Notes under the pieces: model-generated | What the model was told of the DNA's origin: nothing | Databases searched by the model: none | The model's input: the letters and a program-made list of their open reading frames with translations, nothing else | Source: a phage | Length of the DNA: 64,000 bases | Reading direction: 5' to 3' (one strand) | Assembly (NCBI GenBank): GCA_012690745.1 | Contig: GCA_012690745.1_4086.1 | Program-made: the position numbers and the translations under genes | Shown: positions 24,489 to 41,328 of the stretch, one piece after another | How the letters are laid out: each line of letters opens with the position of its first letter | How positions within the stretch are numbered: the stretch's first letter is position 1

Positions 24489-25506
24489 TAAAGCAATTAC
24501 ATTCACTGATATTCATTTAGGTTTAAAGAATAACAGCAAGCAACACAATGAAGATTGTTTAAACTTCATTAAATTCATGATTGAGGTAGCTAAAAAAAAT
24601 AATATCAAAGTTTGTGTTTTTATGGGAGATTATTTTCATAATAGAAGTAATATCAATATCCAAACACTAAACTATGGTTTACAAATTCTTCAATTATTAA
24701 ATGATAATTTTGAAAAAGTATATTTTTTAGTAGGCAACCATGATATGTATCATAAAAACAAACGTGATATAACAAGTATCAATATGGCTCAAGTTTATGA
24801 AAATATAGAATTCATTAATGAAATTACAACATTTGATGATTGTACTTTCATTCCATTTATGATTGAAGATGAATATAAGTTGTTACCTCAACTAAAAAGT
24901 AAGTATGTTTTTGGTCACTTAGAGTTACCAGGTTACTTGCTTAACAAGATGGTAGAAATGCCTGATCATGGTAAAGAAACAGAAGGTTCTTTTGGTGGTT
25001 GTGAGTATGTTTTTAGTGGACATTTTCATAAAAGGCAGTCAAAAACAACTTCAAAAGGAACTCGTGTAGTTTATACTGGTAATTGTTTTCCACATAATTT
25101 TTCCGATACATGGGATGATGCAAGAGGTGTGATGATTCTTGAACATGGAAAAGAACCTATTTTCAAGTCATGGGATAATGCACCAAAATATAGAACATTC
25201 ACACTTTCTGAATTGTTGACTGATCCAAGCTATTATCTACAAGATAACACAATATCAAAAGTTCAAGTTGATATATCAATAACAACAGATGAGATTAGTT
25301 TTATTCGTGATACATTTACTAAACTTTACAACATTAGAGAGTTTAATGTTGTAACGAGCAAGCAAAGTATCGCAGAATTAATTGAAGATGGTGTTAGTTT
25401 TGAAAGTACTGAATCAGTTGATGAGATTGTGTTGCAGCAAATTATGGAAATTGACTCACCCATGTTTGATAAAAATCTTCTAATCCAAATTTACAGATCG
25501 TTATAA
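24475..25506 (+). CDS. gp47: Recombination nuclease subunit gp47 (Mre11/SbcD-like metallophosphatase)
   Basis: Metallophosphatase motifs ITFTDIHLG, GDYFH, GNHD, GHLE/GHFH. The track ORF starts at TTG 24457; the ATG at 24475 has an RBS. Confidence 0.8.
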   Translation: MALFDKAITFTDIHLGLKNNSKQHNEDCLNFIKFMIEVAKKNNIKVCVFMGDYFHNRSNINIQTLNYGLQILQLLNDNFEKVYFLVGNHDMYHKNKRDITSINMAQVYENIEFINEITTFDDCTFIPFMIEDEYKLLPQLKSKYVFGHLELPGYLLNKMVEMPDHGKETEGSFGGCEYVFSGHFHKRQSKTTSKGTRVVYTGNCFPHNFSDTWDDARGVMILEHGKEPIFKSWDNAPKYRTFTLSELLTDPSYYLQDNTISKVQVDISITTDEISFIRDTFTKLYNIREFNVVTSKQSIAELIEDGVSFESTESVDEIVLQQIMEIDSPMFDKNLLIQIYRSL

Positions 25507-25514
25507 GGGACTAT

Positions 25515-27662
25515 ATGCTAAACATTACACGTATATCTATGAGGAACTTCTTTTCATTTGGTAATGCACCACAATCAATTGAATTGAATGGTTCTGACAT
25601 TTCATTAGTACTGGGTCAAAATAATGATGCAGTTATTGAAGGTGGTGACAGCACCGGACGTCGAAATGGTGTCGGGAAAAGTGCTATTATTCAAGGATTA
25701 GTTTTTGGATTATTTGGGAAAAGTATTGGTAATGATATTAAAATTCCTAACTTAGTCAATAAAACTAATGGTAAAAATTGTGAAGTAGTTGTAGAATTTG
25801 AAAAAGATGGTGTACAATATCTTGTTGAGCGTGGGAGAAGTCCCACGTATTTCAATTTTGTTACTTTAGGCAAAGATAATAAAATTGAAGATGAATCAAG
25901 GGGAGAAAAGAAAGACACACAAGAAGATTTGAATGAAATTCTTGGTATATCTCAATTATTATTTGAACATATTGTAGTACTGAATGCTAACGTTGAACCT
26001 TTCTTAGCTTTATCCACACAAAAACAACGTGATATGATAGAAGAACTTCTTGGAATAACACAGTTGACGGAAAAAGCTGAAATGCTAAAGGAGATGTATA
26101 AGGATACTAAACGTTTAGCCGAACAAGAAAAGTTCAAAAATGAAACTGTAGCTGCAAGTAATGAACGTATTCAAAAAAGTATTGAGACACTACAAGAACA
26201 GGCAAACCAGTTTGAAATTGATAAAAATAATAGAGTATCTAAGTTAAATGAAGAGTTGAATATATATAAAACTTTAGACTTTAATGACCTCTATGAAGCT
26301 GCTGATATAAAAGAGAAAGCTCTTATTCATAACGCAAAGCGTGGGGAAATCGAACGCCGTGTACAAGAGTTGGCGTTAAAATTTGATGCATATGACCGTG
26401 AACTTGAAAGATCTAAAAGAGCATTAAATCTAAGCATTGATAAGCTAAAAACTATTGATATTAGTGCAGAATTGGAAAATCATAATGAGTTGGAGATATG
26501 GAAACAGTTAGAGGGTATTCTAAAAGAGAATAATAACCAAAAACGTTTCAAAGAACAAAAACTAAACTCACTAAAAATAGCTTTAAAAGGATATGAATGT
26601 TCAATTAATGCTGAAATTGACAAATTATCAACAGTTGAAAACAGCAAATGTCCACTTTGTATGTCTGAATTAGAACATAACGAACATACTTCTTCAATTA
26701 AAGACAAAATCCAAAGTACTATTAATGATCTTCAAGCTAAAATTGATAGTTCTTCTTCTGAAATTGAAACATTACTTCAAGAAATTGATAGTATTGAGAT
26801 TTTTGATATGCCACCTAAGCCTGTGACATATTATAATACACTTTCAGAAGCACAAATGCATGAACATAAGCTTCAAGAATTGGTCAGAAAGAGTGAAGAA
26901 GAACAAATAAACATCTATGCAAATGAACTTATGTCATCATATGATGAACTTAACTCATATGAACTAATGGAAGTTCCAGATACATTAAACAAATATGAAG
27001 TTAAAGAGTTAGAAATGACTGTAAATTCATTATCACAGCAATTAGATCGTGAATTGAAGACTACTAACACATTTATTAGCCAAATTAATACCCTGAAGAC
27101 TGATTCTTTAGTACCAATTGATTATAGCGACTATAATAATCTTGATAAAATGTCAAATCACCAAGATTTCTTGGTTAAATTACTTTTAAACAAGGATTCT
27201 TATGTCCGTAAACGTATTATTGAGCAAAATATATCATATTTGAATACACGACTTCAGTACTATATCGATATGTGCGGTTCTGAGCATAATGTTGTGTTTT
27301 TGAATGATTTGAGTGTTGAAATTGAGAAGAGTGGACAGTACTTTGACTATAAACAGCTTAGTAGAGGTGAGCGTACAAGGGTAAACATCGCATTATCTTG
27401 TGCTTTCCGTGATACATATGAGTCATTATACCAAAGTATTAATATTCTTATCATTGATGAGATGATTGACCAAGGTCTTGACTCAAGTGGTGTTCTACGT
27501 GTGTGGTCTATCTTCCAAGATATGGCTGCTGTACGTGGTAAGAACGTTTATGCTATTTCCCACAGAGAAGAGTTACTATCTAAGACTGAAAAAATCCTCA
27601 AAGTTGTTAAAGAGGACGGTTTCAGTACTGTTGAATATGCAACCCTTGATGATGTTTTCTAA
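25515..27662 (+). CDS. gp46: Recombination ATPase subunit gp46 (Rad50/SbcC-like)
   Basis: N-terminal Walker A NGVGKS, central coiled coil with a CPLC zinc hook, ABC signature LSRGERTRV, and Walker B LIIDE. Confidence 0.85.
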   Translation: MLNITRISMRNFFSFGNAPQSIELNGSDISLVLGQNNDAVIEGGDSTGRRNGVGKSAIIQGLVFGLFGKSIGNDIKIPNLVNKTNGKNCEVVVEFEKDGVQYLVERGRSPTYFNFVTLGKDNKIEDESRGEKKDTQEDLNEILGISQLLFEHIVVLNANVEPFLALSTQKQRDMIEELLGITQLTEKAEMLKEMYKDTKRLAEQEKFKNETVAASNERIQKSIETLQEQANQFEIDKNNRVSKLNEELNIYKTLDFNDLYEAADIKEKALIHNAKRGEIERRVQELALKFDAYDRELERSKRALNLSIDKLKTIDISAELENHNELEIWKQLEGILKENNNQKRFKEQKLNSLKIALKGYECSINAEIDKLSTVENSKCPLCMSELEHNEHTSSIKDKIQSTINDLQAKIDSSSSEIETLLQEIDSIEIFDMPPKPVTYYNTLSEAQMHEHKLQELVRKSEEEQINIYANELMSSYDELNSYELMEVPDTLNKYEVKELEMTVNSLSQQLDRELKTTNTFISQINTLKTDSLVPIDYSDYNNLDKMSNHQDFLVKLLLNKDSYVRKRIIEQNISYLNTRLQYYIDMCGSEHNVVFLNDLSVEIEKSGQYFDYKQLSRGERTRVNIALSCAFRDTYESLYQSINILIIDEMIDQGLDSSGVLRVWSIFQDMAAVRGKNVYAISHREELLSKTEKILKVVKEDGFSTVEYATLDDVF

Positions 27663-27672
27663 TTAAAGTTAA

Positions 27673-27697
27673 AGGGAGCCTTAGCTCCCTTTTTTTA
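27673..27697 (+). terminator. Rho-independent terminator after gp46 (overlaps the stop of the convergent minus-strand gene)
   Basis: Stem AGGGAGC / GCTCCCT with a 4-nt loop followed by TTTTTTT. Confidence 0.65.
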
Positions 27698-28172
27698 TAT
27701 CTACCATATTTAATTTACCGTCCTTAATTAGCTTTCTAGCTTGTTTAGTTCTTTCCTTGACGTTACCTCCAGGAACTACTCCTAAATCGCTTAGAATGGC
27801 GTTCTGCTGCGTTGCTGGAAGCCTTTTAAACTTAGCTACGTCAACGGTTAATGCCGTGTGGTGAATGACCTGCTCATCTTCTGGTATATGATTGTTCCTT
27901 TCAAGATAATCTGCCAGATTACGCAATACTTCATGTAATGGCTTATCAGTTAAATGACTTAGGCATCGTTTATATGAGTTTGCTACTCTCCCTTCCCATC
28001 CATTCACTTCGTTTTGAAGAACCTGCCTACAATGTTGATTTCCACCATGATAATGGTCCAGTACTGGTTTTGTTATTTCTATACCAATTATAGGGTCAAT
28101 CCCATTCTGCTTCTTTAATAGTTCATTTCGATAAGATGCTGCTTCTTTAGGATTTTTTAATCTCTTTTTCAT
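27681..28172 (-). CDS. Endonuclease VII-like / HNH-type nuclease (163 aa)
   Basis: LDHYHGGNQHCRQVLQNEVNGWEG resembles the T4 endonuclease VII HNH-like motif (LDHDHE...G.VRGLLC..CN...G as recalled). Confidence 0.4.
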   Translation of the reverse strand: MKKRLKNPKEAASYRNELLKKQNGIDPIIGIEITKPVLDHYHGGNQHCRQVLQNEVNGWEGRVANSYKRCLSHLTDKPLHEVLRNLADYLERNNHIPEDEQVIHHTALTVDVAKFKRLPATQQNAILSDLGVVPGGNVKERTKQARKLIKDGKLNMVDIKKGS

Positions 28173-28232
28173 AGCTGTTTGTCCTGTTTTGTTAAATAAA
28201 GTATATTAAAAAGTTTTGTGAGGTACAATAGA

Positions 28233-29180
28233 ATGGCTAAAATGACACAACAACAATTTATAGATAAATCAATTAATCTACATGGTAGTATTTACACCTA
28301 CAATAACACCGTGTATGTTAATGCACATCAACCAGTGTCTATTACATGTAAAATTCATGGTGACTTTACGGTAGTTCCTAATAAACATATTTCCGCAAAG
28401 CAAGGTTGTCCGGTTTGTTCTGATATTGCAAAGAAAGAACGTAAATCTAAAAAGTCACTGGAGTCATTCTTTACTGAAGCAAAAGAAGTACACGGTGATA
28501 AGTATGATTACTCTAAAGTGTTTTTCAACATTCGTTCAGAGAAAATTACTATCATATGCAAAGAAGAAGGTCATGGTGAATTTAATCAGGTAGTTAGTAA
28601 TCACCTAGCTGGACAGGGTTGCCCTGAATGCTCCAAAGCACTTATTGGTTTAAAGAAAAGAACACCAGAAGATGTATTCTTTGAAGATTGTAAGTACATT
28701 CATATGGATGCATACGACTACTCCAATACAAAATATAATGGTATGTATGAAACAATTACACCAGTATGCAAACGTCATGGAGAATTCACAGTACTGGCAA
28801 CTAAACATTATCATAGAAAGCAAGGTTGTCCGGTTTGTTCTGACATGGAACTAAAGTCAAGACCAGTTATTGAAATTCAGAATTTTTTAAAAGAGTATGA
28901 TATAATATTTGAAATGGAAAAGAAGTTTGATGGTTGTAAAAATATAAACCATTTACCATTTGATTTTTATATTCCTTCACTGAATCTTCTAATAGAGTAT
29001 GATGGTATTCAACACTTCAAACCAATAGAGTACTTTGGTGGTAAACAAGCTTTAGCTGAACAGCAAAGAAATGATGAAATAAAAAATCAATTCTGTTTTA
29101 ATAACAACATTACTCTTCTTAGAATAAAGTATTTCGAAGATCATATTAAAATCATCAAAGACTATATATCAAAACTTTAA
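28233..29180 (+). CDS. Homing-endonuclease-like protein: three tandem zinc-ribbon repeats plus a C-terminal PD-(D/E)xK (Vsr/DUF559-like) nuclease domain
   Basis: Three copies of the repeat (Y-x-Y ... HGEF/HGDF ... GQGCP-x-C). C-terminal FDFYIPSLNLLIEYDGIQHF is typical of Vsr-like PD-(D/E)xK domains. The track ORF starts at GTG 28218; the ATG at 28233 has an RBS. Confidence 0.55.
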   Translation: MAKMTQQQFIDKSINLHGSIYTYNNTVYVNAHQPVSITCKIHGDFTVVPNKHISAKQGCPVCSDIAKKERKSKKSLESFFTEAKEVHGDKYDYSKVFFNIRSEKITIICKEEGHGEFNQVVSNHLAGQGCPECSKALIGLKKRTPEDVFFEDCKYIHMDAYDYSNTKYNGMYETITPVCKRHGEFTVLATKHYHRKQGCPVCSDMELKSRPVIEIQNFLKEYDIIFEMEKKFDGCKNINHLPFDFYIPSLNLLIEYDGIQHFKPIEYFGGKQALAEQQRNDEIKNQFCFNNNITLLRIKYFEDHIKIIKDYISKL

Positions 29181-29203
29181 AATATGATATAGTTTTTTTA
29201 GAA

Positions 29204-29235
29204 CCAAGTAATAAAAATGTTACTTGGGTTTTTAT
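29204..29235 (+). terminator. Rho-independent terminator after the homing-endonuclease-like gene
   Basis: Eight-bp stem CCAAGTAA / TTACTTGG with an 8-nt loop followed by GTTTTTAT. Confidence 0.55.
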
Positions 29236-29305
29236 ATGTGTAAAAGTTGGAACTAAGTACTTAATGAATATTTTTATAAAAATAGTGAGACAACTTTAAA
29301 GTTTG

Positions 29306-29314
29306 TGCTATAAT
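29306..29314 (+). promoter_or_regulatory. Extended -10 sigma70-like promoter (TGcTATAAT) driving an ORF-free region
   Basis: TGcTATAAT with no protein-coding gene downstream before the terminator at 29752-29777. Confidence 0.4.
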
Positions 29315-29319
29315 GTTTG

Positions 29320-29777
29320 TTGTAGTAATGACAATCCTGTTGAATGCAGAAATGCATATAAATTAGAACCTGATCCTATCGAAAATGTAGATGGCAGATG
29401 AGCAGTTCAACAGTGCGATGAGCAAAAGAAACCCGTTAGATGTGGGCATAGTTTGAACCCCTCACGGCAATGCGGCTCAATAAAGAACTCCGATAAGCAT
29501 ACAGAGAGTTCCTAGATAGACATATAAGGATCGCACCTTACCAGATTTGCTAAGGGAGTTTATTAAGTGATTTTAATAAACAGCCTGAAGTTTGATTGTA
29601 TAGACTTTCAGGTGAGTGTCAGGATGATTAAGACTGACGACCGTTGCACATGACTGCGATAGAGAGAAACAGAGCAACCCGCTTTCGTTCTTAATATATT
29701 TTTAAGAAATTCGCAATACAATAAATGCTGAAACCATCAGCGTCAAGAAATAGAGACTTCATTGTCTCTTTTTTATT
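29320..29777 (+). ncRNA. Candidate structured non-coding RNA (~460 nt), unclassified
   Basis: ORF-free, visibly more GC-rich than flanking DNA, bounded by a promoter-like element and a strong intrinsic terminator. Several internal stem-loops (for example CCTGAAG...CTTTCAGG, GTCAG...CTGAC). No tRNA T-loop motif found. Confidence 0.35.
29752..29777 (+). terminator. Rho-independent terminator ending the ORF-free transcription unit
   Basis: Stem AGAGAC / GTCTCT with loop TTCATT followed by TTTTTTATT. Confidence 0.65.
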
Positions 29778-29993
29778 GTCTTCATTCCCCTGCGGGGGGA
29801 TGAAAATGTCCTCAACAAATCCCGTCAAGTATTAAATCTTTTAAAGTTCTTTATAATTAATTTAATTAAATGAATATGAGTTACGTAGTAACGAATATTC
29901 TTCAGCTAACGAATGAAATGAGTTAGATGAATCCAATAATATTAAAATTAATCCTTTCATAATTCAATTCAAATAATTCTGTAGTTTAAAACC

Positions 29994-30021
29994 AAAAAAA
30001 AAACCAGCAACAATGTGCTGG
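29994..30021 (-). terminator. Rho-independent terminator (minus strand) after the 69-aa gene
   Basis: Stem CCAGCA / TGCTGG preceded on the plus strand by A10, which is a U10 tract after the hairpin on the minus strand. Confidence 0.65.
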
Positions 30022-30032
30022 CTATATGAAAA

Positions 30033-30242
30033 TTAGTGCTTCTCGTTTTGTTTTTTAATTTTTTTATTAAAAGACTTAACTAATAAGTCTCTATCTATTA
30101 ATGGCATATTAAGGAGTGTTCCATAGTCAATGTTATCCATATATACAGAACATTCCATTAGTGCATTTTTGATTTCTGACTTATTCAGTTCTATCTCCTT
30201 CAGTACTTCTTGTATTTCTTCAGGAGATGACTGGAGAAGCAT
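30033..30242 (-). CDS. Hypothetical small protein (69 aa)
   Basis: Start overlaps the stop of the upstream 278-aa gene (translational coupling); followed by a terminator. Confidence 0.45.
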   Translation of the reverse strand: MLLQSSPEEIQEVLKEIELNKSEIKNALMECSVYMDNIDYGTLLNMPLIDRDLLVKSFNKKIKKQNEKH

Positions 30243-31078
30243 TACTCGAAAAAATGACTAGGATCATATTTTAGTCCATCAATTTCCCATTGATGATTAC
30301 ATCCATCACATTCTACTTCCATACTATGTGATACTCCAATTTCAAGTACTTCATCCATTTTTTCACGAATTAGTTTAAGTACTCCCTTCGATTGTTGTCC
30401 AAGCCATTCATTAATAAATTCTTTTTCAACTACTTCATCACCATCTGGTGTTATAATTTTTGCAATAACTCCACCGATCATGTCGAAGTTAAGTTGAGCC
30501 ATGTTTTCAAATACTTCAGAAAATATTTTTACTTTTTCATCTTTATCAATATCAGCAGTTTCAAGAAACTTAGTCTTCTGTTGCTCACTGAACATGCGTT
30601 CAGCAAACGATGAATATTCTTTCCATGTAAGTGGTCTAAATTCTAAACGGAGTCCATTATCTAAATCAATTGATGGGATTTCTTCAAATGCTTGTGCAGT
30701 TTCAAGAAGATATGATAGATTACGCTCAAATCGACCTTCTTTTTCACATTCAGGACATACAACGTTAATATCATATGTTTCTTCTTTAGAAGCAACTTTA
30801 ATAGCAATAAGAAGCATTTCAACGTCATTTACATACAACTCATCAGCGTCAATTACATTAGGAACACAGTTTTCAATAACACGGGATACTGCATCTCCGT
30901 TTAGTAACATATCGGGGGTATTAAGTGTCATTTCATCACGTGCACTACGTGCACAAACTCCACATTTGACACCTTTTGGACCTAGGACTCCTTCTTTATA
31001 AGGAATAACGCCGTTTGTAACTAACTTAGTACTGATCTCTTCAATTTTAGTGTACTTAGCAAGTGGATTCATAGCCAT
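30242..31078 (-). CDS. Hypothetical Cys-rich late protein (278 aa), possible zinc-ribbon assembly protein
   Basis: CGVC, CPEC and CDGC pairs; transcribed from a perfect late-promoter octamer. Confidence 0.5.
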   Translation of the reverse strand: MAMNPLAKYTKIEEISTKLVTNGVIPYKEGVLGPKGVKCGVCARSARDEMTLNTPDMLLNGDAVSRVIENCVPNVIDADELYVNDVEMLLIAIKVASKEETYDINVVCPECEKEGRFERNLSYLLETAQAFEEIPSIDLDNGLRLEFRPLTWKEYSSFAERMFSEQQKTKFLETADIDKDEKVKIFSEVFENMAQLNFDMIGGVIAKIITPDGDEVVEKEFINEWLGQQSKGVLKLIREKMDEVLEIGVSHSMEVECDGCNHQWEIDGLKYDPSHFFE

Positions 31079-31112
31079 TTTATTAAATCTCCATGTAATA
31101 AATGTGTTTTAG

Positions 31113-31120
31113 TATTTATA
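31113..31120 (-). promoter_or_regulatory. T4-type late promoter (TATAAATA on the minus strand)
   Basis: Perfect octamer about 35 nt upstream of ATG 31078. Confidence 0.45.
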
Positions 31121-31208
31121 AGACCAAAAAAGATTAAATTAAACTAATTTTTATATTCTCTATAGTTTCATAAATATTTCTATAATACATCTATTAAAAG
31201 GGAATGTT

Positions 31209-33413
31209 ATGGCTGGAAATACAAGTGATTACCTACTCCAGCAGTTGGTTAATCAAACTAAAGATAACAACGATAGTTTGAGTGCTATACGTGAGTTATT
31301 GGCTGAAAATATAAAAAATGATAGAAAGAAATCCGGTTCTAAAAGTGGAAAACGTAATGGAAGTAATTCATCAAGTACTGGAAACCGTGGCTCTCGAACA
31401 AATAACAAAGCTGATGATGGTAAAGAATTTGGAAAAATATTTAAATCATTATCATCTGAAGTATCGAATGTCGGCAAAACTATGATGAGTACGTCTGCAA
31501 ACGTTAGCAATGTTGTAAACTCACTAGGAATGAGTGCATCTTCATTTGCTGGTTCATTAGCAATGATCCCAGGTCCAGTTGGTGCAGCAGCATCTGCCTT
31601 CAAATTGGTTGCTGACGCTGGTTTAGCAGTTTATAATGTGTTAAATGCACAGCTTGAAGTTTATAATAGAATAAACAGTGCTGGTGTCGCTCTATCTGAA
31701 GGTTACGGCTCCATATTAAAAGGTGCTGGTGCATCAATGATGAGTATTGATGCATTTGGTGAAGCATTACAAACTCATAGTGCCGTTGTTGCACAATTAG
31801 ATGGTGCATATGGTGATGGTGTTTCTACATTTGGTAAATTATTGGGTACTGTGCAACAAGCACAAAATCAATTAGGTTTATATGGTGTTTCTCAAAAAAC
31901 ATTAACTGATTTAACTGCACGTAATATTAAATTCCAAAAGCAATTTGGTGGAAGAGAAATGTTACGTAGTATGGATCAAGCAAAAAGTACTGAACAGTTT
32001 ATCATGAGTATGACTAAGTTCAGTAAAAGTATGGGTGAGTCAGTTGATGCACTATTAAATAAAACACAAAACTTAGATAAATCATTAGACACACGTTCAA
32101 TGCAAATCGCATTACAAAACTATTCTGGCTTATCTAGTAAAGCAGCAGTTGCAACATCAAAAGCATTTAACGAAGCTGCTGCCAGTATGGGTGATGCTGG
32201 TGCAGATTTTCTACGTTTAATTTCACATCGTTTAACTATTGGTGGAGTACCAGATGATTTATTGACTCCAGTACTGAACCAATTTGCTGATTTAGGTGAG
32301 AACTTGGTACGTAGTGGTGTTACTGATTCACAAGAAATTCGCCGTCAACAATTGGAATTTGTTAAAAAGAACAAAGAACTAATAAAGCAAGATTTATTAA
32401 ATCAGATACAATTAGGAAACACTACGGCAGCAACCTTCAACCAACAACTACTTGATATGGAAGCTGCGATTAATGATCCTAAGAGTCAACCAGCAGATAA
32501 ACTAACACAATTCACTGATAGATTCAATAGATGGATTAGTAAAGAATTTACTGAACCATTTAATAAAATGTATGCAGATACACAAAATTCTATTGCGGAT
32601 TACCTTACTGATATTGCAGACCGTACTGATGGTGCATGGGAATTTATCGGAGAGTTAGCACTTGATGGTTTTGGTTTGGTTCCTATTGCGAAAGATGCAG
32701 TTGCGTATTTGGATAGGATTGGTGGTGAGTTTGAGCAGTGGTTAGAAGGGTTAGGTACTGAAATTTTTGGTAGTGGATATAATAAAGTTTCAGAAGCATT
32801 TGATAGCTTTATGAATAACCTAATGGATCTTCCTGGTAAACTTTGGGATTCTGTTAAAGGTTGGTTTGGTGGTTCAGACGACAAAGTAAAAGTAGAAAAC
32901 AATTCTGTTACCGATGGTGCAGAAAAAGTTAATAATTATTTTGAAGAAAAAATGAATTCATTTGGTGATTATATTTCTAGTTCATTTGATGGTTTTTTAA
33001 AATGGAATTCAAGTAGAAACTTTAAACAACCAAAACCCCTTGATGAATCAGTTGCTGAAAAACTTATTAGTAGTGGTCTTGAAAATAAGCCAAGAGCAAC
33101 TGCGAGAATCGAAAAATCTGAACATGTTGCACCATATGTTACCATAACTCCAAAAACTTTTGATAAATCAGCATGGGGTCCAAATGAACCACCAATTCAA
33201 GCTGAACCGGACGATTATGAGGCCATGAAAGCGATGATAAATAGTGGTAGTAGTATGGCAAATGCTAATAATAATGCCACAATATCAGAAGACATGAAAG
33301 AGTTACTTAAAAAACTTGCTGATGTTAATGAGCAATCTCTATCTGCCGTGCAACAGACAAATAACTATCTAAGAACTATCTCTGAAAACACTCAAGGTGA
33401 GAGAAACAGTTAA
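31209..33413 (+). CDS. Hypothetical virion protein (734 aa), tape-measure-like or internal protein
   Basis: Basic Ser/Gly/Arg/Lys-rich N-terminus, then long Ala/Gln/Leu-rich predicted helical segments with FG/GxxG motifs typical of tape-measure proteins; directly upstream of the portal gene. Functional call is inference. Confidence 0.35.
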   Translation: MAGNTSDYLLQQLVNQTKDNNDSLSAIRELLAENIKNDRKKSGSKSGKRNGSNSSSTGNRGSRTNNKADDGKEFGKIFKSLSSEVSNVGKTMMSTSANVSNVVNSLGMSASSFAGSLAMIPGPVGAAASAFKLVADAGLAVYNVLNAQLEVYNRINSAGVALSEGYGSILKGAGASMMSIDAFGEALQTHSAVVAQLDGAYGDGVSTFGKLLGTVQQAQNQLGLYGVSQKTLTDLTARNIKFQKQFGGREMLRSMDQAKSTEQFIMSMTKFSKSMGESVDALLNKTQNLDKSLDTRSMQIALQNYSGLSSKAAVATSKAFNEAAASMGDAGADFLRLISHRLTIGGVPDDLLTPVLNQFADLGENLVRSGVTDSQEIRRQQLEFVKKNKELIKQDLLNQIQLGNTTAATFNQQLLDMEAAINDPKSQPADKLTQFTDRFNRWISKEFTEPFNKMYADTQNSIADYLTDIADRTDGAWEFIGELALDGFGLVPIAKDAVAYLDRIGGEFEQWLEGLGTEIFGSGYNKVSEAFDSFMNNLMDLPGKLWDSVKGWFGGSDDKVKVENNSVTDGAEKVNNYFEEKMNSFGDYISSSFDGFLKWNSSRNFKQPKPLDESVAEKLISSGLENKPRATARIEKSEHVAPYVTITPKTFDKSAWGPNEPPIQAEPDDYEAMKAMINSGSSMANANNNATISEDMKELLKKLADVNEQSLSAVQQTNNYLRTISENTQGERNS

Positions 33414-33424
33414 GGACGAAAATA

Positions 33425-35164
33425 ATGAGTTGGAAACGACATATGACAGTGGGAAGGTCTAAACTATCGACCATCCCGAATCAGTCCAGTAATAGCAATA
33501 AATCAACAGGAACGAAAACAAATTTCGCTTCCTATCTTCCTGTTGTATATAATGGATTGGCAAACCGTACTGAGCGTTATAGTCAGTATGAGCAAATGGA
33601 CCAAGATCCTGAAATTAGAACTGCATTGAATATAATTGCTGACTTTTGTACCCAAAGTACTGAAGATTTTGGTTTACCATATAAAATCAAATATAAAGAT
33701 GATATTGGTGATACTGAAGTAACTACTATTGAAGATCGTTTAGATGCATGGACTGAACAAAATGATTTTAAAACACGAATGTATGAAATTGTGCGTGGTC
33801 TTCTGAAATATGGTGATCAATTTTTCATTCGAGATCCAGAAACATTCGATTGGTATTGGGTAAGTCCCAAAAATGTTGAGCAAGTATTTGTTAACGAAGC
33901 CACTGGTAAAACACCAGTAATTTATTATATACGTGATGTATCATTAAATTTGAAAGATAAAGTTTTTAGTAACCTTCAAGTAGGATTTGATAAAACCGCT
34001 TATCCAGGAGCTATTCCAACAACAATGGGTGGTGGTGGTTCAGTAGCTGCTGGTGGTGCATCTGGTTTTACAAGTCAAGGAAATACGGCTGACCCATTCA
34101 GTACTAACGGTCAATTAGACGTTATTCCTGTTGGTGCAGAACACGTAATTCATCTAACGCTAAATACAGGACAAGATGGAGTATGGCCTTTTGGTACTAG
34201 TATACTTGAGGACGTATTTAAAGTCTATAAGCAAAAAGAACTTCTGGAAGATAGTATCATAATTTATCGTGTACAACGTGCACCTGAGCGTCGTGTATTT
34301 AAAATTGATGTTGGTGATATGCAAGCACACCAAGCGATGGCTTATGTTGAAAGATTTAAAAATGAAATCCACCAGCGTAGAATACCTTCAAACAAAGGTG
34401 GAAGTACTTCATTAATGGATGCAGCATATAATCCATTAAGCATTTTAGAAGACTACTTTTTCCCACAAACTTCTGAAGGTCGTGGTTCAGATGTTCAAAC
34501 ATTACCAGGCGGTGATAACTTAGGACAAATTGATGACTTACGTTATTTTAATAATAAATTGATTCGTGGTCTTCAAATACCAGCTTCTTATCTACCACAA
34601 GGTCCAGATGATGGTGGTGTTTCATTATTTGGTGATGGTGCTACACAAGCTATGGCAAGTGAATTGCGATTCAATAATCAATGTATGCGTTATCAACGTT
34701 TAGTTGCAAAACATTTTGATGCTGAATTCAAAAGATTTATGGTTAAAAATGGATATAACATTAGTACTTCATCTTTTGAAGTTATTATGAATCCACCTAT
34801 TAACTTAGCTTCTTATCGTAAAGCTGAACTAGATGCTAAACTAATTAATACATATCTTCCTCTTAATGACTTGCCTTATATGGCGAAACAAACAATTCTT
34901 GAAAAAATGGGCTTTTCTAAAGCTGATATTGTTAAGAATGAACAAATGTGGTTACAAGAGAATCCACAAGATGGTTCCCAACCTTCTGGTGGTGAAGAAG
35001 ATTCCGCTGGATTACAGTCTGTTGGTATTGATGCTCCAAATGATCCTGGAATGGATCTTGGTATTGATGGAGAAGGTAATTTGGAAAGTGCTGATGCCGA
35101 ATACCAAGAGCAACAGAGTGGAAGTGGTGGTTTCAACCCTAATAATTTAGGCAATTCTTTTTAA
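33425..35164 (+). CDS. gp20: Portal vertex protein (gp20-like)
   Basis: IIYRVQRAPERRVFKIDVGDM and TLPGGDNLGQIDDLRYF closely parallel T4 gp20 ([21 protein letters not shown] and TLPGADNTGNMEDIRWF as recalled). Confidence 0.85.
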   Translation: MSWKRHMTVGRSKLSTIPNQSSNSNKSTGTKTNFASYLPVVYNGLANRTERYSQYEQMDQDPEIRTALNIIADFCTQSTEDFGLPYKIKYKDDIGDTEVTTIEDRLDAWTEQNDFKTRMYEIVRGLLKYGDQFFIRDPETFDWYWVSPKNVEQVFVNEATGKTPVIYYIRDVSLNLKDKVFSNLQVGFDKTAYPGAIPTTMGGGGSVAAGGASGFTSQGNTADPFSTNGQLDVIPVGAEHVIHLTLNTGQDGVWPFGTSILEDVFKVYKQKELLEDSIIIYRVQRAPERRVFKIDVGDMQAHQAMAYVERFKNEIHQRRIPSNKGGSTSLMDAAYNPLSILEDYFFPQTSEGRGSDVQTLPGGDNLGQIDDLRYFNNKLIRGLQIPASYLPQGPDDGGVSLFGDGATQAMASELRFNNQCMRYQRLVAKHFDAEFKRFMVKNGYNISTSSFEVIMNPPINLASYRKAELDAKLINTYLPLNDLPYMAKQTILEKMGFSKADIVKNEQMWLQENPQDGSQPSGGEEDSAGLQSVGIDAPNDPGMDLGIDGEGNLESADAEYQEQQSGSGGFNPNNLGNSF

Positions 35165-35237
35165 ACATAAATAACAGTGTATAAGAATGAGGGTTTATTT
35201 TTACCCTCATTTATAATGCATATTTCAAGGAGATCAA

Positions 35238-35465
35238 ATGTTAAAGGACATCTTTGAATCTAGCAGTGATTCAATGTACGACCCTGAAGATGATCAGAAC
35301 GTATATAAAATTACTGATTCCAGAAAACCGAAACTAACATTACAAGTATTAAACAACTTAAGAAAGTACCGTGAATTTAAAGCACATGAAGAACAACGCC
35401 GCAAAAATGTGGTTGCAGTTGTTTATGCCGCTGCACCAACTGGTGACGGTTCTGGGTTAATGTAA
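35238..35465 (+). CDS. Small prohead core protein (gp67-like position), 75 aa
   Basis: Small acidic ORF between the portal and protease genes, as for T4 gp67. Position-based. Confidence 0.35.
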   Translation: MLKDIFESSSDSMYDPEDDQNVYKITDSRKPKLTLQVLNNLRKYREFKAHEEQRRKNVVAVVYAAAPTGDGSGLM

Positions 35466-35566
35466 ATCAAAAATCGCACTTTTTAAAGCTTTTAAAAAAG
35501 GCGATTTTATTCAGTACTAAATAATATCATACTTTATACGAATGTAATATATCTATGGAGGATATA

Positions 35567-36415
35567 ATGGCGAATTTAAAACTACTACAAGAAGCAATTG
35601 CGGCGTTTGCAAATGGCGAACAAGATATTGCTGATAAAAAAATGCGTAAGTATTTCGTTGAGCAAGCTCAAGAAATTAACAAACAACTAGAAGAAAGCAT
35701 GGAAGATGAAGACGACGATGAAGATTGTGAAGTCGAAGTTAAAGTCAAAGATGAAGAAAAGCTTGACGAAGATTTTGATGTACAACCAGACGAAGGTCTA
35801 AATGCTGAAATCGAATACACCCTTGGTGAAGAAGATGAAAGTGCAGAAGAAGAAGTTGAATTCTCTGCTGATGCAGATGGTGACGGTGAAGACGATGTTG
35901 ACGTTGAAGTGAAAGCTGATGCTGATGTTCCTTCCGAAGACCAATGGGAATCAATCCAAGATGCTTTCCGTGGCCTACAACAAATGTTTGATGAAATCGG
36001 TGACGGTGAAGTTGATCTAGATTCTGAAGAAGAAGTAGAAGATAGCGAAGAAGAAGTTGGTGTTGACGGTGACGACGAATTTGCTGATGTTGAATTCGGC
36101 GATGAAAAATTCGGTGAATCCTTCAAACTAGAAAAAGTTGCTCCAGTTGATAAGAAAGAAAAAGCTGGCACTCATTCCAAATCTCCAGTAGCACCAGAAG
36201 CTAAATCTCCAGTAGCAGGAGCAGAGCCAGTTAAATTCGCTAAGAAAACTGACCAAGCCCCACTACTAGACCTAGATGATAAATCTGTTCTACCAAAAGA
36301 TAGCCTAGATCTTGGTAAAAATGCTCGCGGTGAAATGAAAGATGTTAAAGCACCAAAAACTACTGCATCTAATTCTAAATCACCACTAAGCAAAGCACAA
36401 CCTAAACTAAAATAA
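35567..36415 (+). CDS. Highly acidic head-module protein (prohead core/scaffold or internal protein)
   Basis: Extreme Asp/Glu content (EDEDDDEDCEVEVKVKDEE...) and a C-terminal KSPVAPEAKSPVAGAEP repeat. Track ORF start 35555; the ATG at 35567 follows GGAGGA. Confidence 0.45.
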   Translation: MANLKLLQEAIAAFANGEQDIADKKMRKYFVEQAQEINKQLEESMEDEDDDEDCEVEVKVKDEEKLDEDFDVQPDEGLNAEIEYTLGEEDESAEEEVEFSADADGDGEDDVDVEVKADADVPSEDQWESIQDAFRGLQQMFDEIGDGEVDLDSEEEVEDSEEEVGVDGDDEFADVEFGDEKFGESFKLEKVAPVDKKEKAGTHSKSPVAPEAKSPVAGAEPVKFAKKTDQAPLLDLDDKSVLPKDSLDLGKNARGEMKDVKAPKTTASNSKSPLSKAQPKLK

Positions 36416-36435
36416 ATATCTGAAAGGAGATCATT

Positions 36436-37059
36436 ATGAGTAGTATGATTCGTGAATGGTCTTCATTCAATGATTCTAAAGTTGTTTTGGAACATCGTGA
36501 TAATGGATTTGGTGGGCGTGACTGCTATCTTCGTGGTATTGCTATTCAAGCCGACCAACGAAATTTGAACGAGAGAATTTACCCTTTATCTGAAATTACA
36601 AGGGCAGTAAATAACATGAACCAGCGTTTAGCTAAAGGTGAAAGCATTCTTGTTGAATGTGACCATCCAGAAACACTAACTATTAACCTAGACCGTGTAG
36701 CAGCAATGATTACTAAGGTTTGGATGGAAGGTGCTAATGGTATGGCAGAAATCAAACTACTTGATACTGCACATGGTCAGAATATCCGTAAAATGCTAGA
36801 GGCTGGTGTAAAACTTGGTGTAAGTTCTCGCGGTTCCGGTAACGTTGATTATAATGGAATAGTTTCTGATTTTGAAATTATCACTATTGATATTGTTGCT
36901 CAACCTAGTGCTCCAGAAGCATACCCAACAGCGGTATTTGAATCTCTGATGAGTAAGTACGGATCACCTTGTAATAGTTCTAAAAAAATCACTGAATCTA
37001 AAAAAGTAAATAATTTAGATTCTGAAATATACGATTTTTTCAAGAAATTAAAAGGTTAA
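36436..37059 (+). CDS. gp21: Prohead core protease (gp21-like)
   Basis: CYLRGIAIQADQRNLNERIYP, ECDHP and GVSSRGSG match conserved T4 gp21 segments. Confidence 0.8.
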   Translation: MSSMIREWSSFNDSKVVLEHRDNGFGGRDCYLRGIAIQADQRNLNERIYPLSEITRAVNNMNQRLAKGESILVECDHPETLTINLDRVAAMITKVWMEGANGMAEIKLLDTAHGQNIRKMLEAGVKLGVSSRGSGNVDYNGIVSDFEIITIDIVAQPSAPEAYPTAVFESLMSKYGSPCNSSKKITESKKVNNLDSEIYDFFKKLKG

Positions 37060-37070
37060 CATTTTAAAAA

Positions 37071-37078
37071 TATAAATA
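37071..37078 (+). promoter_or_regulatory. T4-type late promoter (TATAAATA)
   Basis: Perfect octamer about 48 nt upstream of the scaffold gene ATG; a hairpin ATCTGTA...TACAGAT lies in the leader. Confidence 0.45.
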
Positions 37079-37125
37079 TCTGTATGTTGAAGTACAGATA
37101 TTTCAGTACTTAAAGGAGAGAACGA

Positions 37126-38241
37126 ATGTCTAAATTAGAAAAGCTTCTAAAAGAATCATCTCTTTCTGATGAGGCAAAACAGCTAATTCAGGAAGCATGG
37201 AATGAAGAAAAGAATACACTAGCCGCAGAGATGCGTGAAGAAATGAAAGGCCGTTATCAGCAAGATTTGGCTGAACTAACCGAAGGTTTGAACACTATGG
37301 TTACTCAAGTCATTTCTGAAGAAATGGGTGCTGTATATGAAGAGAAAAAACGTCTCGTTGAAGATCGTGTAACTCTACGTAAAACACTAAGCAATTTCTC
37401 TGCGTTTTCAAACTCTGTTTTGGCTGAAGAAGTTAAACAAATGCGTAAAGAACGTAAGCATCTTCATGAATGCATGGGTAAATTCGTTAATTTTTCTAAC
37501 GGTATCCTAGCAGAAGAGCTAAAAGAATTCCACACTGAAAAACGCCAACTAGTAGAAACTCGCGTTAAACTACTTGCTGAAGGTTCACGTCAAATTGCTG
37601 AAGCTCGTAATAACTTCATCAAACGTACATCTGAAAGTGCTGCTAAATATATTGCAGAAACCACTCAGAAGAATCTATATGCGTTGAAACAAGATCTAGT
37701 GGAAGCAAAACAAAATATGTTTGGTCGTAAAATCTTTGAAGCATTTGCTCAAGAGTTTAATGTCAAACAATTTAATGAAAACTCATTGCTACGTTCCCTA
37801 ACTGAATCAATTAAATCCAAAGAAGATGAAATTGCTCAAGTTAAGCAAGAACTACATGAAACTGCTAATGCGGTTAAAGCTGCTAAAACCAAACTACGTA
37901 TTATGGAAGATGCACAAGCACGTAATGCGATTATGTCTGAACTAGTAAAACCACTAACTGCACAGCAAAAACAAATTATGGAATCCCTTCTAGCTACTTC
38001 ACCTACTGAAAAGCTTAAAGAAGATTTCAGCAAGTACCATAAGTCAGTACTTAACGGTACTAAAGTAAATGAATCTGCTACCACTCGTCAAGCAGTTCAG
38101 TCTTCCGCTAAGAAAACTCTTGCAGAAGGTAAAGTAATCACTGGCAACCGTCAGGCTATTGTTGAAAGCGAAGAAATGACCGCTGACGATATGGCATTCC
38201 TAAAAGAACTCGATGTTCTTTCAGGTATCAATAAAAAATAA
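37126..38241 (+). CDS. gp22: Prohead scaffold protein (gp22-like), coiled-coil rich
   Basis: Lys/Glu/Ala/Gln-rich predicted helical protein between the protease and capsid genes. Confidence 0.6.
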   Translation: MSKLEKLLKESSLSDEAKQLIQEAWNEEKNTLAAEMREEMKGRYQQDLAELTEGLNTMVTQVISEEMGAVYEEKKRLVEDRVTLRKTLSNFSAFSNSVLAEEVKQMRKERKHLHECMGKFVNFSNGILAEELKEFHTEKRQLVETRVKLLAEGSRQIAEARNNFIKRTSESAAKYIAETTQKNLYALKQDLVEAKQNMFGRKIFEAFAQEFNVKQFNENSLLRSLTESIKSKEDEIAQVKQELHETANAVKAAKTKLRIMEDAQARNAIMSELVKPLTAQQKQIMESLLATSPTEKLKEDFSKYHKSVLNGTKVNESATTRQAVQSSAKKTLAEGKVITGNRQAIVESEEMTADDMAFLKELDVLSGINKK

Positions 38242-38279
38242 ACATTTTAAAGCATTTTAATAATCAAATTTTTCAGTTC

Positions 38280-38287
38280 TATAAATA
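38280..38287 (+). promoter_or_regulatory. T4-type late promoter (TATAAATA) for the major capsid gene
   Basis: Perfect octamer about 45 nt upstream of ATG 38333; the leader is shared with the acidic-protein gene. Confidence 0.5.
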
Positions 38288-38332
38288 ATATCATACTGAA
38301 AAACGAATATAACATCTTTAAGGAGATATATA

Positions 38333-39508
38333 ATGTCACAACTACTAAATGAATCCAAATGGGTAGCAGTAAAAGAGAAACTAGTTGAAGGTCTACAGGG
38401 TACTCGTAAGTCTGTAATGGAAACTGTTCTTGATAACCATCGTAAAGTTATGCTAACTGAATCCGCAACTTCTGGTGCAACTACCGCTGGTAACATCGCT
38501 ACTCTAAACAAAGTGATTCTACCAATTATGCGTCGTGTAATGCCAACCGTTATTGCTAACGAAATCATCGGTGTTCAACCTATGACTGGTCCAGTTGGTC
38601 AGATCCACACCCTACGTGTACAATATGCTGATAACGCACCTGGTGTAATCGCTGGTGAAGAAATGCTTTCTCCATACAAAATCGCTAAATCTTACTCTGG
38701 TGATCTAAATGCGGATAATAGCAACCCACAAGCTGCTCCTACTAGCCAACTAGAAGGTACTATGGGTCGTCGCGTTAACATCCGTATTCTACGTGAAACT
38801 GTTGAAGCGAAATCTCGTCGTCTATCTGCACGTTGGACTGTTGAATCTGCACAAGATGCACAATCCCAACATGGTGTTGACGTTGAAGCAGAACTAATGG
38901 CTGCAATCGCTCAAGAAGTTACCGTAGAAATCGACCAAGAGCTACTAAGCCGTCTACGTGCACTACCTGGTGCTGCTGCTGTAACTTATGACCAATCTAA
39001 AGTTACTGGTGTTGCAACCTTCGTTGGTGATGAGCACGCTGCTCTAGCAACTCTAATTAACCGTCAAGCAAACGAAGTTGCTCGTCGTACTAAGCGTGGT
39101 GCTGCAAACTGGGCTGTTGTTTCCCCAACTGCACTAACCATTCTACAATCTGCTACTACTTCTAGCTTTGCACGTACCACTGAAGGTACTTTCGAAGCCC
39201 CAACTAACGTTAAGTTTGTAGGTACTCTAAACAGCACTATGCGTATTTTTGTTGATACTTATGCAAGTGATGCAGAAGATATTCTAATTGGTTATAAAGG
39301 TAATGCAGAAACTGATGCTGGTGTGTTCTATTGCCCATACATCCCACTAATGGCTTCCGGTACTGTAATGGACCCTAACACTGGGGAATTGGTCACAACT
39401 TTCCTTACCAGGTATGGTTATGTACAATTGACTGATAGTACTTCTTCTCTTGGTAACGCTGCTGACTACTACAGCAAAATCGCTATCAAAAACGTTACTT
39501 TCATGTAA
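38333..39508 (+). CDS. gp23: Major capsid protein (gp23/gp24 family), short 391-aa form
   Basis: IATLNKVILPIMRRVMPTVIANEIIGVQPMTGPVGQIHTLRVQYAD parallels T4 gp23 (IAFDICGVQPMNSPTGQVFALRAVYG as recalled). Confidence 0.85.
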   Translation: MSQLLNESKWVAVKEKLVEGLQGTRKSVMETVLDNHRKVMLTESATSGATTAGNIATLNKVILPIMRRVMPTVIANEIIGVQPMTGPVGQIHTLRVQYADNAPGVIAGEEMLSPYKIAKSYSGDLNADNSNPQAAPTSQLEGTMGRRVNIRILRETVEAKSRRLSARWTVESAQDAQSQHGVDVEAELMAAIAQEVTVEIDQELLSRLRALPGAAAVTYDQSKVTGVATFVGDEHAALATLINRQANEVARRTKRGAANWAVVSPTALTILQSATTSSFARTTEGTFEAPTNVKFVGTLNSTMRIFVDTYASDAEDILIGYKGNAETDAGVFYCPYIPLMASGTVMDPNTGELVTTFLTRYGYVQLTDSTSSLGNAADYYSKIAIKNVTFM

Positions 39509-39552
39509 TTGTAATCGATTTAAAAGATTTAATCAAGAAATTAAAAACAATA

Positions 39553-39581
39553 GGGACTCTTCGGAGTCCCTTTTCTTTTTT
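39553..39581 (+). terminator. Rho-independent terminator after the capsid gene
   Basis: Stem GGGACTC / GAGTCCC with a TTCG loop followed by TTTTCTTTTTT. Confidence 0.7.
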
Positions 39582-39584
39582 GTG

Positions 39585-39613
39585 TTGACATGTCACATTT
39601 TTTGTGTAATAAT
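39585..39613 (+). promoter_or_regulatory. Sigma70-like promoter (TTGACA - 17 bp - AATAAT) upstream of the split homing-endonuclease gene
   Basis: Perfect -35 hexamer TTGACA; -10-like AATAAT at 17-bp spacing. Confidence 0.45.
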
Positions 39614-39641
39614 ACGCGTACATTATAAATGAAGAAGAGAA

Positions 39642-40566
39642 ATGACAATGAATCCAAATGAAGAAAAATTTATTAATACAGTGAATGAAAAGTATGGTAC
39701 TGGTGTGTATTTGTTTGATAAAATGGTATATATTAATGCTCATAAACAGGTTGAACTTTATTGTGTAGAAGGTGGTCATTATTTCAAAATCACTCCTATG
39801 CAAATAGTCCGACCTTCTGCAAAAGGATGTAACATTTGTCAAAAAAAACACAGCATACACGACCGAAACGTTTATTGAAAAAGTTAAAACCATCCATCCA
39901 ACATTGTCATTTGAGAAAACTATCTACAAAAAACAAAGTGACAGTAATGGGCGAGTCATCGTTACATGTCATAATGATCCGAATGATGTGCATGATTGGG
40001 AAGTATCAGCCGCAACATTATTAAAAGGAAAAACTAGTTGTGGAATATGTTCTGGTAAAGGTGGAAGAAGTACTGAACGTTTCATTGAACTTGTGTCGCC
40101 TATCCATAACCATAAGTATGATTATAGCTTGGTGGATTACAAGACTAGTGATGAACATGTGGATATTATTTGTCCTGAACATGGTGTCTTTAAACAAATA
40201 CCCAAATCTCATATGGCAGGAAGAGGATGTCCATCATGTGGTGAGTATGGTTATCAACCATCAAAACCTGGATATTTCTATGTTCAAAAACTAACTAACA
40301 ATGACAAGACGGTGTACAAGTATGGAATCACTGGTGATATGAAACGCCGTGTAAACGAACAAAGTCGCAATTCTGAGTTCGAGCATGAAGTACTTGTAGA
40401 ACGCTACTTTGAAGATGGCAATCAACCATTACTGTTGGAAAAGTTCATAAAGAAATACATTGAAAGTGGTGTTGTAAGTACTGAAGAGTTATCGTCAGGA
40501 TTTACTGAAACATTTGATGCTAAGTATCTTGAAAGTGTTTTAGAAATTGTAAATACTTTTAAGTAA
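39642..40566 (+). pseudogene. Homing-endonuclease-like gene (zinc-ribbon repeats plus T5orf172/GIY-YIG-like domain) split by a frameshift at an A8 run
   Basis: ORFs 39642-39878 and 39904-40566 carry the same repeats as the 28233 gene. Removing one A from the A8 run at about 39841-39848 joins them in frame (…NICQKNTAYTTETFIEKVKTIHPTLSFEKTIYKK…). Confidence 0.5.
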
Positions 40567-40589
40567 ACAATCTAAAGGAGTTGACACGG

Positions 40590-40940
40590 ATGTTAACTGT
40601 ATACAAATTTAACAAAGAAGAGTACTTAAAGAGTCAGTACTCAAATATAGAAATAAATGTTCCTTATGGTACGTTAGTTGGATATGATGAAGCCACTGAA
40701 ACATTGTATTATAATGATGATAGATTGGATTATAGTTTAGATTCTTTCATAGAAGATATACTTAATACACATACTGAAGATATGTTGTATGAAGAATACA
40801 TCGATCATTATAGAGAACGTATGTCGGTGCTGCATTCTGATGCTCCTGTGCTAAACATTGCACAAGAACCATCGGAATTTCAGCCACATAATCCTTTTCA
40901 ACGTTTAATTGATATTGGTTTAAAATTCACTATTAGTTGA
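40590..40940 (+). CDS. Hypothetical protein (~116 aa)
   Basis: ORF with AGGAG upstream of ATG 40590; the track start 40581 is TTG. Confidence 0.4.
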   Translation: MLTVYKFNKEEYLKSQYSNIEINVPYGTLVGYDEATETLYYNDDRLDYSLDSFIEDILNTHTEDMLYEEYIDHYRERMSVLHSDAPVLNIAQEPSEFQPHNPFQRLIDIGLKFTIS

Positions 40941-40978
40941 TAGATAAATATCTCCATATTAATGATGGAGATTGAATC

Positions 40979-41288
40979 TATGTCACAGATATGTTATGTT
41001 ATAATAAACTCTGCATGGCCTGACTATGTTAAGATTGGTTTCACTTCTAAATCTGAAATGACAGAGCGTTTGAGAACGTATCAGACAGCTACCCCGTTTC
41101 GTGATTTTGAAGTTTATCATGAAGTTCACTTTGAAGACGCACGTTTAGCTGAAAAAGAGATACATAAAAGGCTTAAACAAATGAATGCAACTAGACAACC
41201 AAACACGGAGTGGTTTAAAATGTCTAAAAAGATAGCAGCAAACATCATTGATTCTGTGTGGGATGATATGGATAACGACTTGCTATAG
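40979..41288 (+). CDS. Small stand-alone T5orf172/GIY-YIG-like domain protein
   Basis: CYVIIN...YVKIGFTS...RL..YQT...EVHFED parallels the C-terminal domain of the adjacent split gene (YFYVQK...YKYGITGD...EVLVERYFED). Confidence 0.45.
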
Positions 41289-41328
41289 GAATAAATATAG
41301 TATATATTAATCATAAAGGGATTTATAC

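Follow-up and report, generated by a model that had tools for sequence, protein, structure and literature searches.

The gene at positions 28233-29180 (plus strand) of the window, the 64,000-nucleotide stretch of phage DNA analyzed here, is very probably a free-standing homing endonuclease gene (HEG) of an Asteriusvirus-type (121Q/PBECO4-like) jumbo coliphage, with a predicted cleavage activity. It encodes three tandem zinc modules followed by a Vsr-like nuclease domain. The gene behaves as a mobile element, being present or absent at a fixed site between close relatives in two clades. The proposed pathway begins in a mixed infection. The enzyme would cut the endonuclease VII locus of a co-infecting relative that lacks the HEG. 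The break would then be repaired by recombination off the HEG-bearing genome, and the HEG would be copied in. A variable neighboring stretch, endonuclease VII included, would be copied along with it. We infer that the protein cleaves DNA and makes a double-strand break.

The window belongs to a jumbo myovirus in the Asteriusvirus group (121Q, PBECO4). The preliminary description of this DNA placed the HEG at 28233-29180, and the open reading frame list bears this out, with an ATG at 28233, a stop codon ending at 29180 (included in the span), and a product of 315 aa. A ribosome-binding site, GAGG (28220-28223, plus strand), was read directly from the sequence 9 nt 5' of the ATG. The N-terminus, MAK..., is kept in the homologs P0001 and P0005. 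The protein matches PHROG 559 (E=5e-65) and PHROG 9084, "homing endonuclease" (E=2e-32). On its 5' side lie an SbcC/gp46-like ATPase gene (25515-27662, plus strand) and, divergent from the HEG, an endonuclease VII gene (27681-28172, minus strand; PHROG 423, E=1e-30), the neighbor that had been named. On the 3' side, the terminator that had been assigned to the HEG was found as an intrinsic-terminator-like element at 29204-29237 (plus strand), a hairpin (29204-29227) followed by a T-run. A scan of 25000-42000 against Rfam gave no intron match at gathering score. With no detectable intron RNA, the HEG is free-standing, as had been proposed.

Beyond the HEG, about 780 nt without an open reading frame and one small open reading frame precede a baseplate hub gene (30242-31078, minus strand). 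The empty stretch (29254-30030) has no open reading frame of at least 60 aa and is 99-100% identical to 121Q; within it, 29349-29836 is ~77% identical to Salmonella phage Munch. Terminator-like hairpins lie at 29752-29769 (both strands) and 30002-30023 (minus strand). The preliminary description had flagged this stretch as a candidate noncoding RNA. No Rfam family reaches gathering score in it and no tRNA was detected; across 29150-30100, Rfam matches are at chance level.

Comparison of insertion sites in related phages had been suggested as a check on mobility, with universal presence of the gene counting against it. Matches to the region 27000-30500 came from 59 phage records, most of them Escherichia jumbo phages of ~350 kb. 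Two of these cover the HEG, ECO103 4-12-1 and EC22.5-2 (88% amino acid identity). 121Q does not have it, nor do at least 27 further Asteriusvirus records in which both flanks are present. The HEG-bearing segment, 1,080 bp at 28173-29253, was delimited by BLAST and by alignment junctions against 121Q. Phage 121Q aligns to the window through 28173 and resumes at 29254, with an unrelated 58-bp spacer (L001 2675-2732) between. The inserted segment brings its own ribosome-binding site and terminator hairpin for the HEG.

The same site is polymorphic in a second clade. Munch and Klebsiella phage fENko-Kae01 carry a 46%-identical homolog at exactly the same position, while 7t3, a near-identical relative of Munch, has no HEG at the locus. 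Four metagenomic relatives (P0005, P0029, P0043, and P0111) encode proteins of 311-318 aa with three modules and 49-61% identity to the HEG. In all four of the corresponding contigs, which were looked up, the gene order is SbcD, SbcC, endonuclease VII (minus strand), HEG (plus strand). This HEG lineage is faithful to one site, the endonuclease VII locus.

The N-terminal part of the protein is built from repeats. A repeat hidden Markov model (HMM), made from 200 repeats of family proteins, detects three domains and no more (independent E-values 5e-17 to 3e-22). These are module 1 (28251-28421, aa 7-63, with C39, H42, C59, and C62; iE=2.6e-19), module 2 (28458-28634, aa 76-134, with C109, H114, C130, and C133; iE=2.6e-22), and module 3 (28668-28841, aa 146-203, with C179, H182, C199, and C202; iE=4.7e-17), all on the plus strand. 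Pairwise identity among the three is 34-46%, with BLASTP E-values of 1e-11 to 3e-19. Two Pfam families score above cutoff, DUF723 (30.1 bits, cutoff 20.9) and DUF4379 (27.3 bits, cutoff 24.5), the latter at aa 103-135 within module 2. The preliminary description was right that there are three tandem copies. Its repeat length of ~45 aa was too short, as the unit is ~58-60 aa with a 70-aa period.

Each repeat carries an invariant Cys-x2/4-His...Cys-x2-Cys set together with HG-x-F and Y-D-Y motifs. The zinc-ligand residues of module 1 do not vary across an alignment of 40 homologs; among aligned family members DUF4379 is found in 40 of 40, DUF723 in 37 of 40, and CapR in 11 of 40. In the AlphaFold model, secondary structure assigned by DSSP puts the Cys-x2/4-His knuckle in a beta-hairpin, and a helix starts at the CPxC. 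The modeled ligand arrangement looks nearer to a treble clef than to a classical zinc ribbon, the label first given to the module, and Pfam itself describes DUF4379 as a "probable treble clef zinc finger". No NUMOD or helix-turn-helix match was found in the protein, whose N-terminus consists of these Cys/His modules. Most likely the modules bind an extended DNA site. At the DNA level, modules 1 and 3 are 75% identical over 81 nt, including a 27-nt exact match (28397-28423 and 28817-28843) that encodes KQGCPVCSD. Gene conversion or a recent duplication may account for this identity, and repeat number could change through it.

The C-terminal domain (28854-29177, plus strand; aa 208-315) was harder to place by profile. 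Domain HMM searches, proposed earlier as a check, put the modules above cutoff and left the nuclease profiles below threshold; the fold came from modeling. On the nuclease domain, Pfam gave DUF2726 (E=0.0014) and DUF559 (E=0.16), both sub-cutoff, and the Vsr family profile is absent among Pfam matches at E<=1 for the protein. Profile searches against the PDB returned AbaSI, NGO0050 (3hrl), and I-Bth0305I, all sub-threshold, with the D...I-E-x-D-G-x-Q-H motif aligned. Foldseek with the full-length model was weak against the PDB (Vsr, E=0.12, probability 0.97). That model has a pTM of 0.41 and its inter-domain geometry is undefined, so the C-terminal domain was modeled separately. The resulting fold is Vsr-like, as claimed at the outset, with an identity to 1cw0 of merely 10%. 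The fold comparison also lists RAP domains, then VRR-NUC, TnsA, and Hjc. By its modeled structure, the domain is a Vsr-like member of the restriction-endonuclease fold.

Alignments of the C-terminal domain (39 and 32 sequences) show D244, E255, G258, H261, and D281 to be invariant and K284 nearly so. By alignment, D244, H261, and D281 are plausible equivalents of the composite residues of I-Bth0305I. The first helix of most family members has a conserved Glu (SxxE), which is Val or Ile in the clade of this HEG. The domain most likely cuts DNA, and by analogy with I-Bth0305I it probably does so as a dimer. PHROG 559, the RefSeq protein YP_006987379.1 (GAP32_274), and Flavobacterium phage homologs are labeled "HNH endonuclease". 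Since the protein has no HNH match in Pfam at E<=1 and its fold is Vsr-like, this label appears to be a misnomer, a misannotation that has been propagated.

The DNA around the gene bears a recombination signature. In a sliding-window comparison, the window and 121Q are 97-100% identical in the SbcC-like gene and again from 29271 on. Across the whole of endonuclease VII (27691-28172) they are just 67-79% identical. The left edge of this divergent island is a bidirectional terminator hairpin (27671-27692) between the SbcC-like gene and endonuclease VII. The left breakpoint differs in ECO103, where it falls inside endonuclease VII. ECO103 follows 121Q at 98-100% identity up to ~27872 and diverges just in the 5' part of endonuclease VII, beside the HEG. 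Munch and 7t3 show the same arrangement, with flanks at 98-100% and endonuclease VII at 63-84% identity. For the endonuclease VII allele of the window, the best match in the phage collection is 82%.

Between the window and ECO103, whose backbones are ~99-100% identical to one another and to 121Q, the HEG has a dS of 0.74 and a dN/dS of 0.09, low in both the repeat and the nuclease halves. By this measure the HEG is under purifying selection. Such near-identical backbones, combined with HEG alleles at this dS, divergent endonuclease VII genes, and differing breakpoints, require lateral replacement of the cassette. These comparisons indicate that an "endonuclease VII + HEG" cassette has been replaced repeatedly, with variable breakpoints. 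The divergence islands over the HEG and endonuclease VII fit homing with co-conversion, and they agree with a published report of nuclease genes at the borders of exchange and recombination between phages (PMC10448857).

The selection signal could also be read as domestication. The gene would then be a HEG derivative that no longer propagates itself and acts as a sequence-specific DNA-binding regulator, like CapR for the PLE satellite, or serves to attack competing phages or satellites. Both the low dN/dS and the long retention at a single locus across deep clades would suit a useful function, and there is precedent, as CapR and Odn derive from related modules (PMC8096241, PMC10448857). We nevertheless consider domestication unlikely. 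Most close relatives are viable phages without the gene, the candidate catalytic residues are all intact, and the islands of divergence are centered on the gene, as expected from homing with co-conversion. Exclusion of competitors' markers would, moreover, be the identical molecular activity to homing.

Presence and absence could also arise without mobility, were the gene an ancestral resident of the endonuclease VII locus deleted in most lineages. Homologs of 46-88% identity at the same position in Asteriusvirus, Munch-like phages, and several metagenomic jumbo phages speak for such a history, and occupation of one locus in several deep clades would also suit old vertical inheritance with repeated loss. 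Simple deletion elsewhere, however, cannot explain how near-identical backbones come to hold HEG alleles so far apart at synonymous sites, nor why endonuclease VII alleles are 20-30% off between near-twin genomes with differing breakpoints. This makes a history of loss quite improbable. That the gene is an inactive, decaying remnant kept through linkage alone is very hard to credit: degeneration belongs to HEG life cycles and the second HEG of the window is frameshifted, but none of the eight carriers examined has a broken reading frame, dN/dS is low in both domains, and the zinc ligands and nuclease-motif residues are all conserved.

Homing, the preferred reading, raises the question of where the enzyme would cut. 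Endonuclease VII (27681-28172) is a probable co-conversion tract and a candidate site of the target. Both the window and ECO103 are divergent over the 5' 300 bp of this gene and the spacer, so in genomes without the HEG the cut is likeliest there. We rate such a target, whether in the 58-bp spacer or the 5' part of the gene, as a real possibility, somewhat short of probable. A hint toward codons 24-80 comes from the protein alleles. Within endonuclease VII aa 24-80, the HEG-linked alleles (window, ECO103, and Munch) are mutually 88-95% identical in protein and 63-79% identical to the alleles of 121Q, TH47, and 7t3. In the C-terminal half, Munch groups with 7t3. Nucleotide identity within the HEG-linked class (NGWEGRV...KRCL) is only 72-77% between clades.

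We considered this class as a marker of immunity to the HEG and reduced the idea to a hint. The class also turns up in UE-S1, phiKp_21, and GAP32, all lacking this HEG, and the HEG-bearing contig L017 does not have it; the link between allele and target is therefore only suggestive. UE-S1 has the HEG-linked class in codons 24-80, a 121Q-like 5' end, and no HEG, a pattern that a repair tract stopping short of the HEG could explain. Separately, Salmonella phage SD-2_S15 has a 402-bp deletion relative to 121Q (L004 ~2379/2380, corresponding to window 27897-29302). It takes the 5' ~295 bp of endonuclease VII, the spacer, and ~50 bp more, which is the inferred target region. Three sibling SD records have similarly reduced coverage of the region 27000-30500. 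The SD-2_S15 deletion could reflect faulty break repair, or an assembly or annotation problem.

A second HEG lies at 39642-40566 (plus strand) in the window, with three zinc modules and a T5orf172/GIY-YIG-like domain. It is of the T5orf172 type (PHROG 681, E=6e-53; Pfam T5orf172, E=0.007, sub-cutoff), and the repeat HMM scores its modules at iE=3.8e-23, 7.5e-6, and 0.86. A scan of all six-frame open reading frames of the window found modules in these two genes alone. Because the repeat HMM matches both, one module family is common to two nuclease heads in one genome. The preliminary description had recognized this sharing and regarded the array as a portable module on different catalytic domains. 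That view is correct and already published (PMC10448857, PMC12350094). NCBIfam has no model for either HEG or for the endonuclease VII of the window.

The second gene had also been called split, which holds, and the cause is a single-base frameshift. Its modules and T5orf172 domain are not in one intact open reading frame in the window, as a run of eight A residues (39841-39848) breaks the frame; slurp01 has seven and an intact 307-aa open reading frame. The extra A may be a real inactivating mutation or an error of sequencing. Over this region, ECO103 and IA-38 reach 99.6% identity. In 121Q the gene encodes 365 aa with one additional N-terminal module, and it is absent from PBECO4. The second HEG is thus also polymorphic, and modular in repeat number. 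Two genes 3' of it, 40962-41288 (plus strand) encodes a stand-alone 108-aa T5orf172/MUG113 (GIY-YIG-like) protein (Pfam E=4e-13) without DNA-binding modules, and its counterpart is annotated in 121Q, PBECO4, and slurp01. It may be a nuclease head without a DNA-binding array.

Some relatives carry a different HEG in the gap that separates endonuclease VII from the SbcC-like gene, opposite the side used by the HEG of the window: TH47 (L002 2177-3199), phiKp_21 (L012 2923-3954), and the metagenomic contig L014 (2418-3449). These encode 340-343 aa with Cys-rich modules and a T5orf172/MUG113 domain, and in L014 HEGs flank endonuclease VII on both sides. The endonuclease VII locus of Rak2/121Q-like jumbo phages looks like a HEG hotspot, where Vsr-type HEGs take one side of the gene and T5orf172-type HEGs the opposite one.

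One further proposal concerns the modules themselves. The tandem 60-aa units might form a DNA-reading array, with one sub-site per module, that can be combined with Vsr-like or T5orf172 heads. We hold this to be doubtful. The modules could instead give largely non-specific affinity, by analogy with the N-terminal region of I-Bth0305I. If the array did read DNA, the series of HEG alleles at this locus (46-88% identical, with diverged targets) could yield a module-to-DNA recognition rule and could localize the target within endonuclease VII codons 24-80.

The family to which this HEG belongs is very large and biochemically uncharacterized. Of 8,000 candidates scored, 7,461 proteins matched at E<=1e-5, many with at least five modules, and the family is found in 1,037 phage records by tblastn and among 295 BFVD viral structures at E<=1e-3, giant-virus proteins included. 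The gene in the window is a clean natural example from this family, across which the "HNH endonuclease" misannotation is widespread. New here is a HEG sub-lineage specific to one site, the endonuclease VII locus, in Rak2/121Q-like jumbo phages. New too are two natural pairs of genomes with and without the HEG that have clear co-conversion tracts, together with the evidence for purifying selection. In these pairs, window/121Q and Munch/7t3, the genomes are otherwise near-identical and the neighboring endonuclease VII has been replaced together with the HEG. They are ready substrates for mapping cleavage sites and measuring co-conversion in jumbo phages.

Both the architecture and the sharing of modules were already described in 2023 and 2025, and this is no new kind of system. 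In PMC12350094, the architecture is presented as a large unrecognized outgroup of EDxHD/Vsr HEGs with thousands of unannotated relatives. Those proteins have 3-5 modules of ~60 aa related to CapR, DUF4379, or DUF723, followed by an EDxHD/Vsr-like domain of ~100 aa. The HEG of the window has the same layout, three such modules ahead of a C-terminal domain of that size and kind. The difference is one of setting: theirs are intron-encoded in virion RNA polymerase genes, whereas this one is free-standing and intergenic. The accessible text of that paper holds no biochemical test of its examples, and our search of the searchable literature found no tested member with this exact architecture.

HEGs of the T5orf172 type and the domesticated CapR share the repeated zinc-module array, which is presumed to bind DNA (PMC10448857, PMC8096241). 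In the 2023 paper, T5orf172 HEGs are described with repeated CapR/DUF723/DUF4379 modules, whose modularity is discussed (PMC10448857). HEGs of this kind have been seen at the borders of exchanged DNA. The second gene of the window belongs to this type. The catalytic domain sets the first apart, being Vsr-like where theirs is T5orf172/GIY-YIG-like.

I-Bth0305I, the EDxHD prototype (PDB 3R3P; PMC3239194), shares the Vsr-like catalytic fold. Unlike the HEG described here, it has two NUMOD2/helix-turn-helix motifs and no zinc modules, and it is a homodimer encoded by a group I intron in recA (PMC3239194). The Glu, Asp, (x), His, and Asp of EDxHD correspond to E25, D51, H64, H69, and D97 of Vsr. 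Plausible equivalents of D, H, and D are conserved in the HEG, while the first E is absent in its clade; the IEYDG motif adds an invariant Glu beyond the composite residues of I-Bth0305I. The Vsr mismatch-repair endonuclease proper differs from the HEG in profile match, domain context, and mobility.

In lifestyle, the closest likeness is to the free-standing HEGs of T-even phages (SegG, MobE, and Hef). These are intergenic and cleave in or near a conserved neighbor in phages that lack the HEG, and they cause co-conversion of flanking markers, which for the HEG of the window is predicted. Hef, likened here by description, is listed as a Vsr-like family member (PMC3239194) and cuts nrdB (PMC2988022). 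The T-even enzymes differ in catalytic domain, Seg being GIY-YIG and Mob HNH, and in target, which is gene 32 or the nrd genes rather than endonuclease VII.
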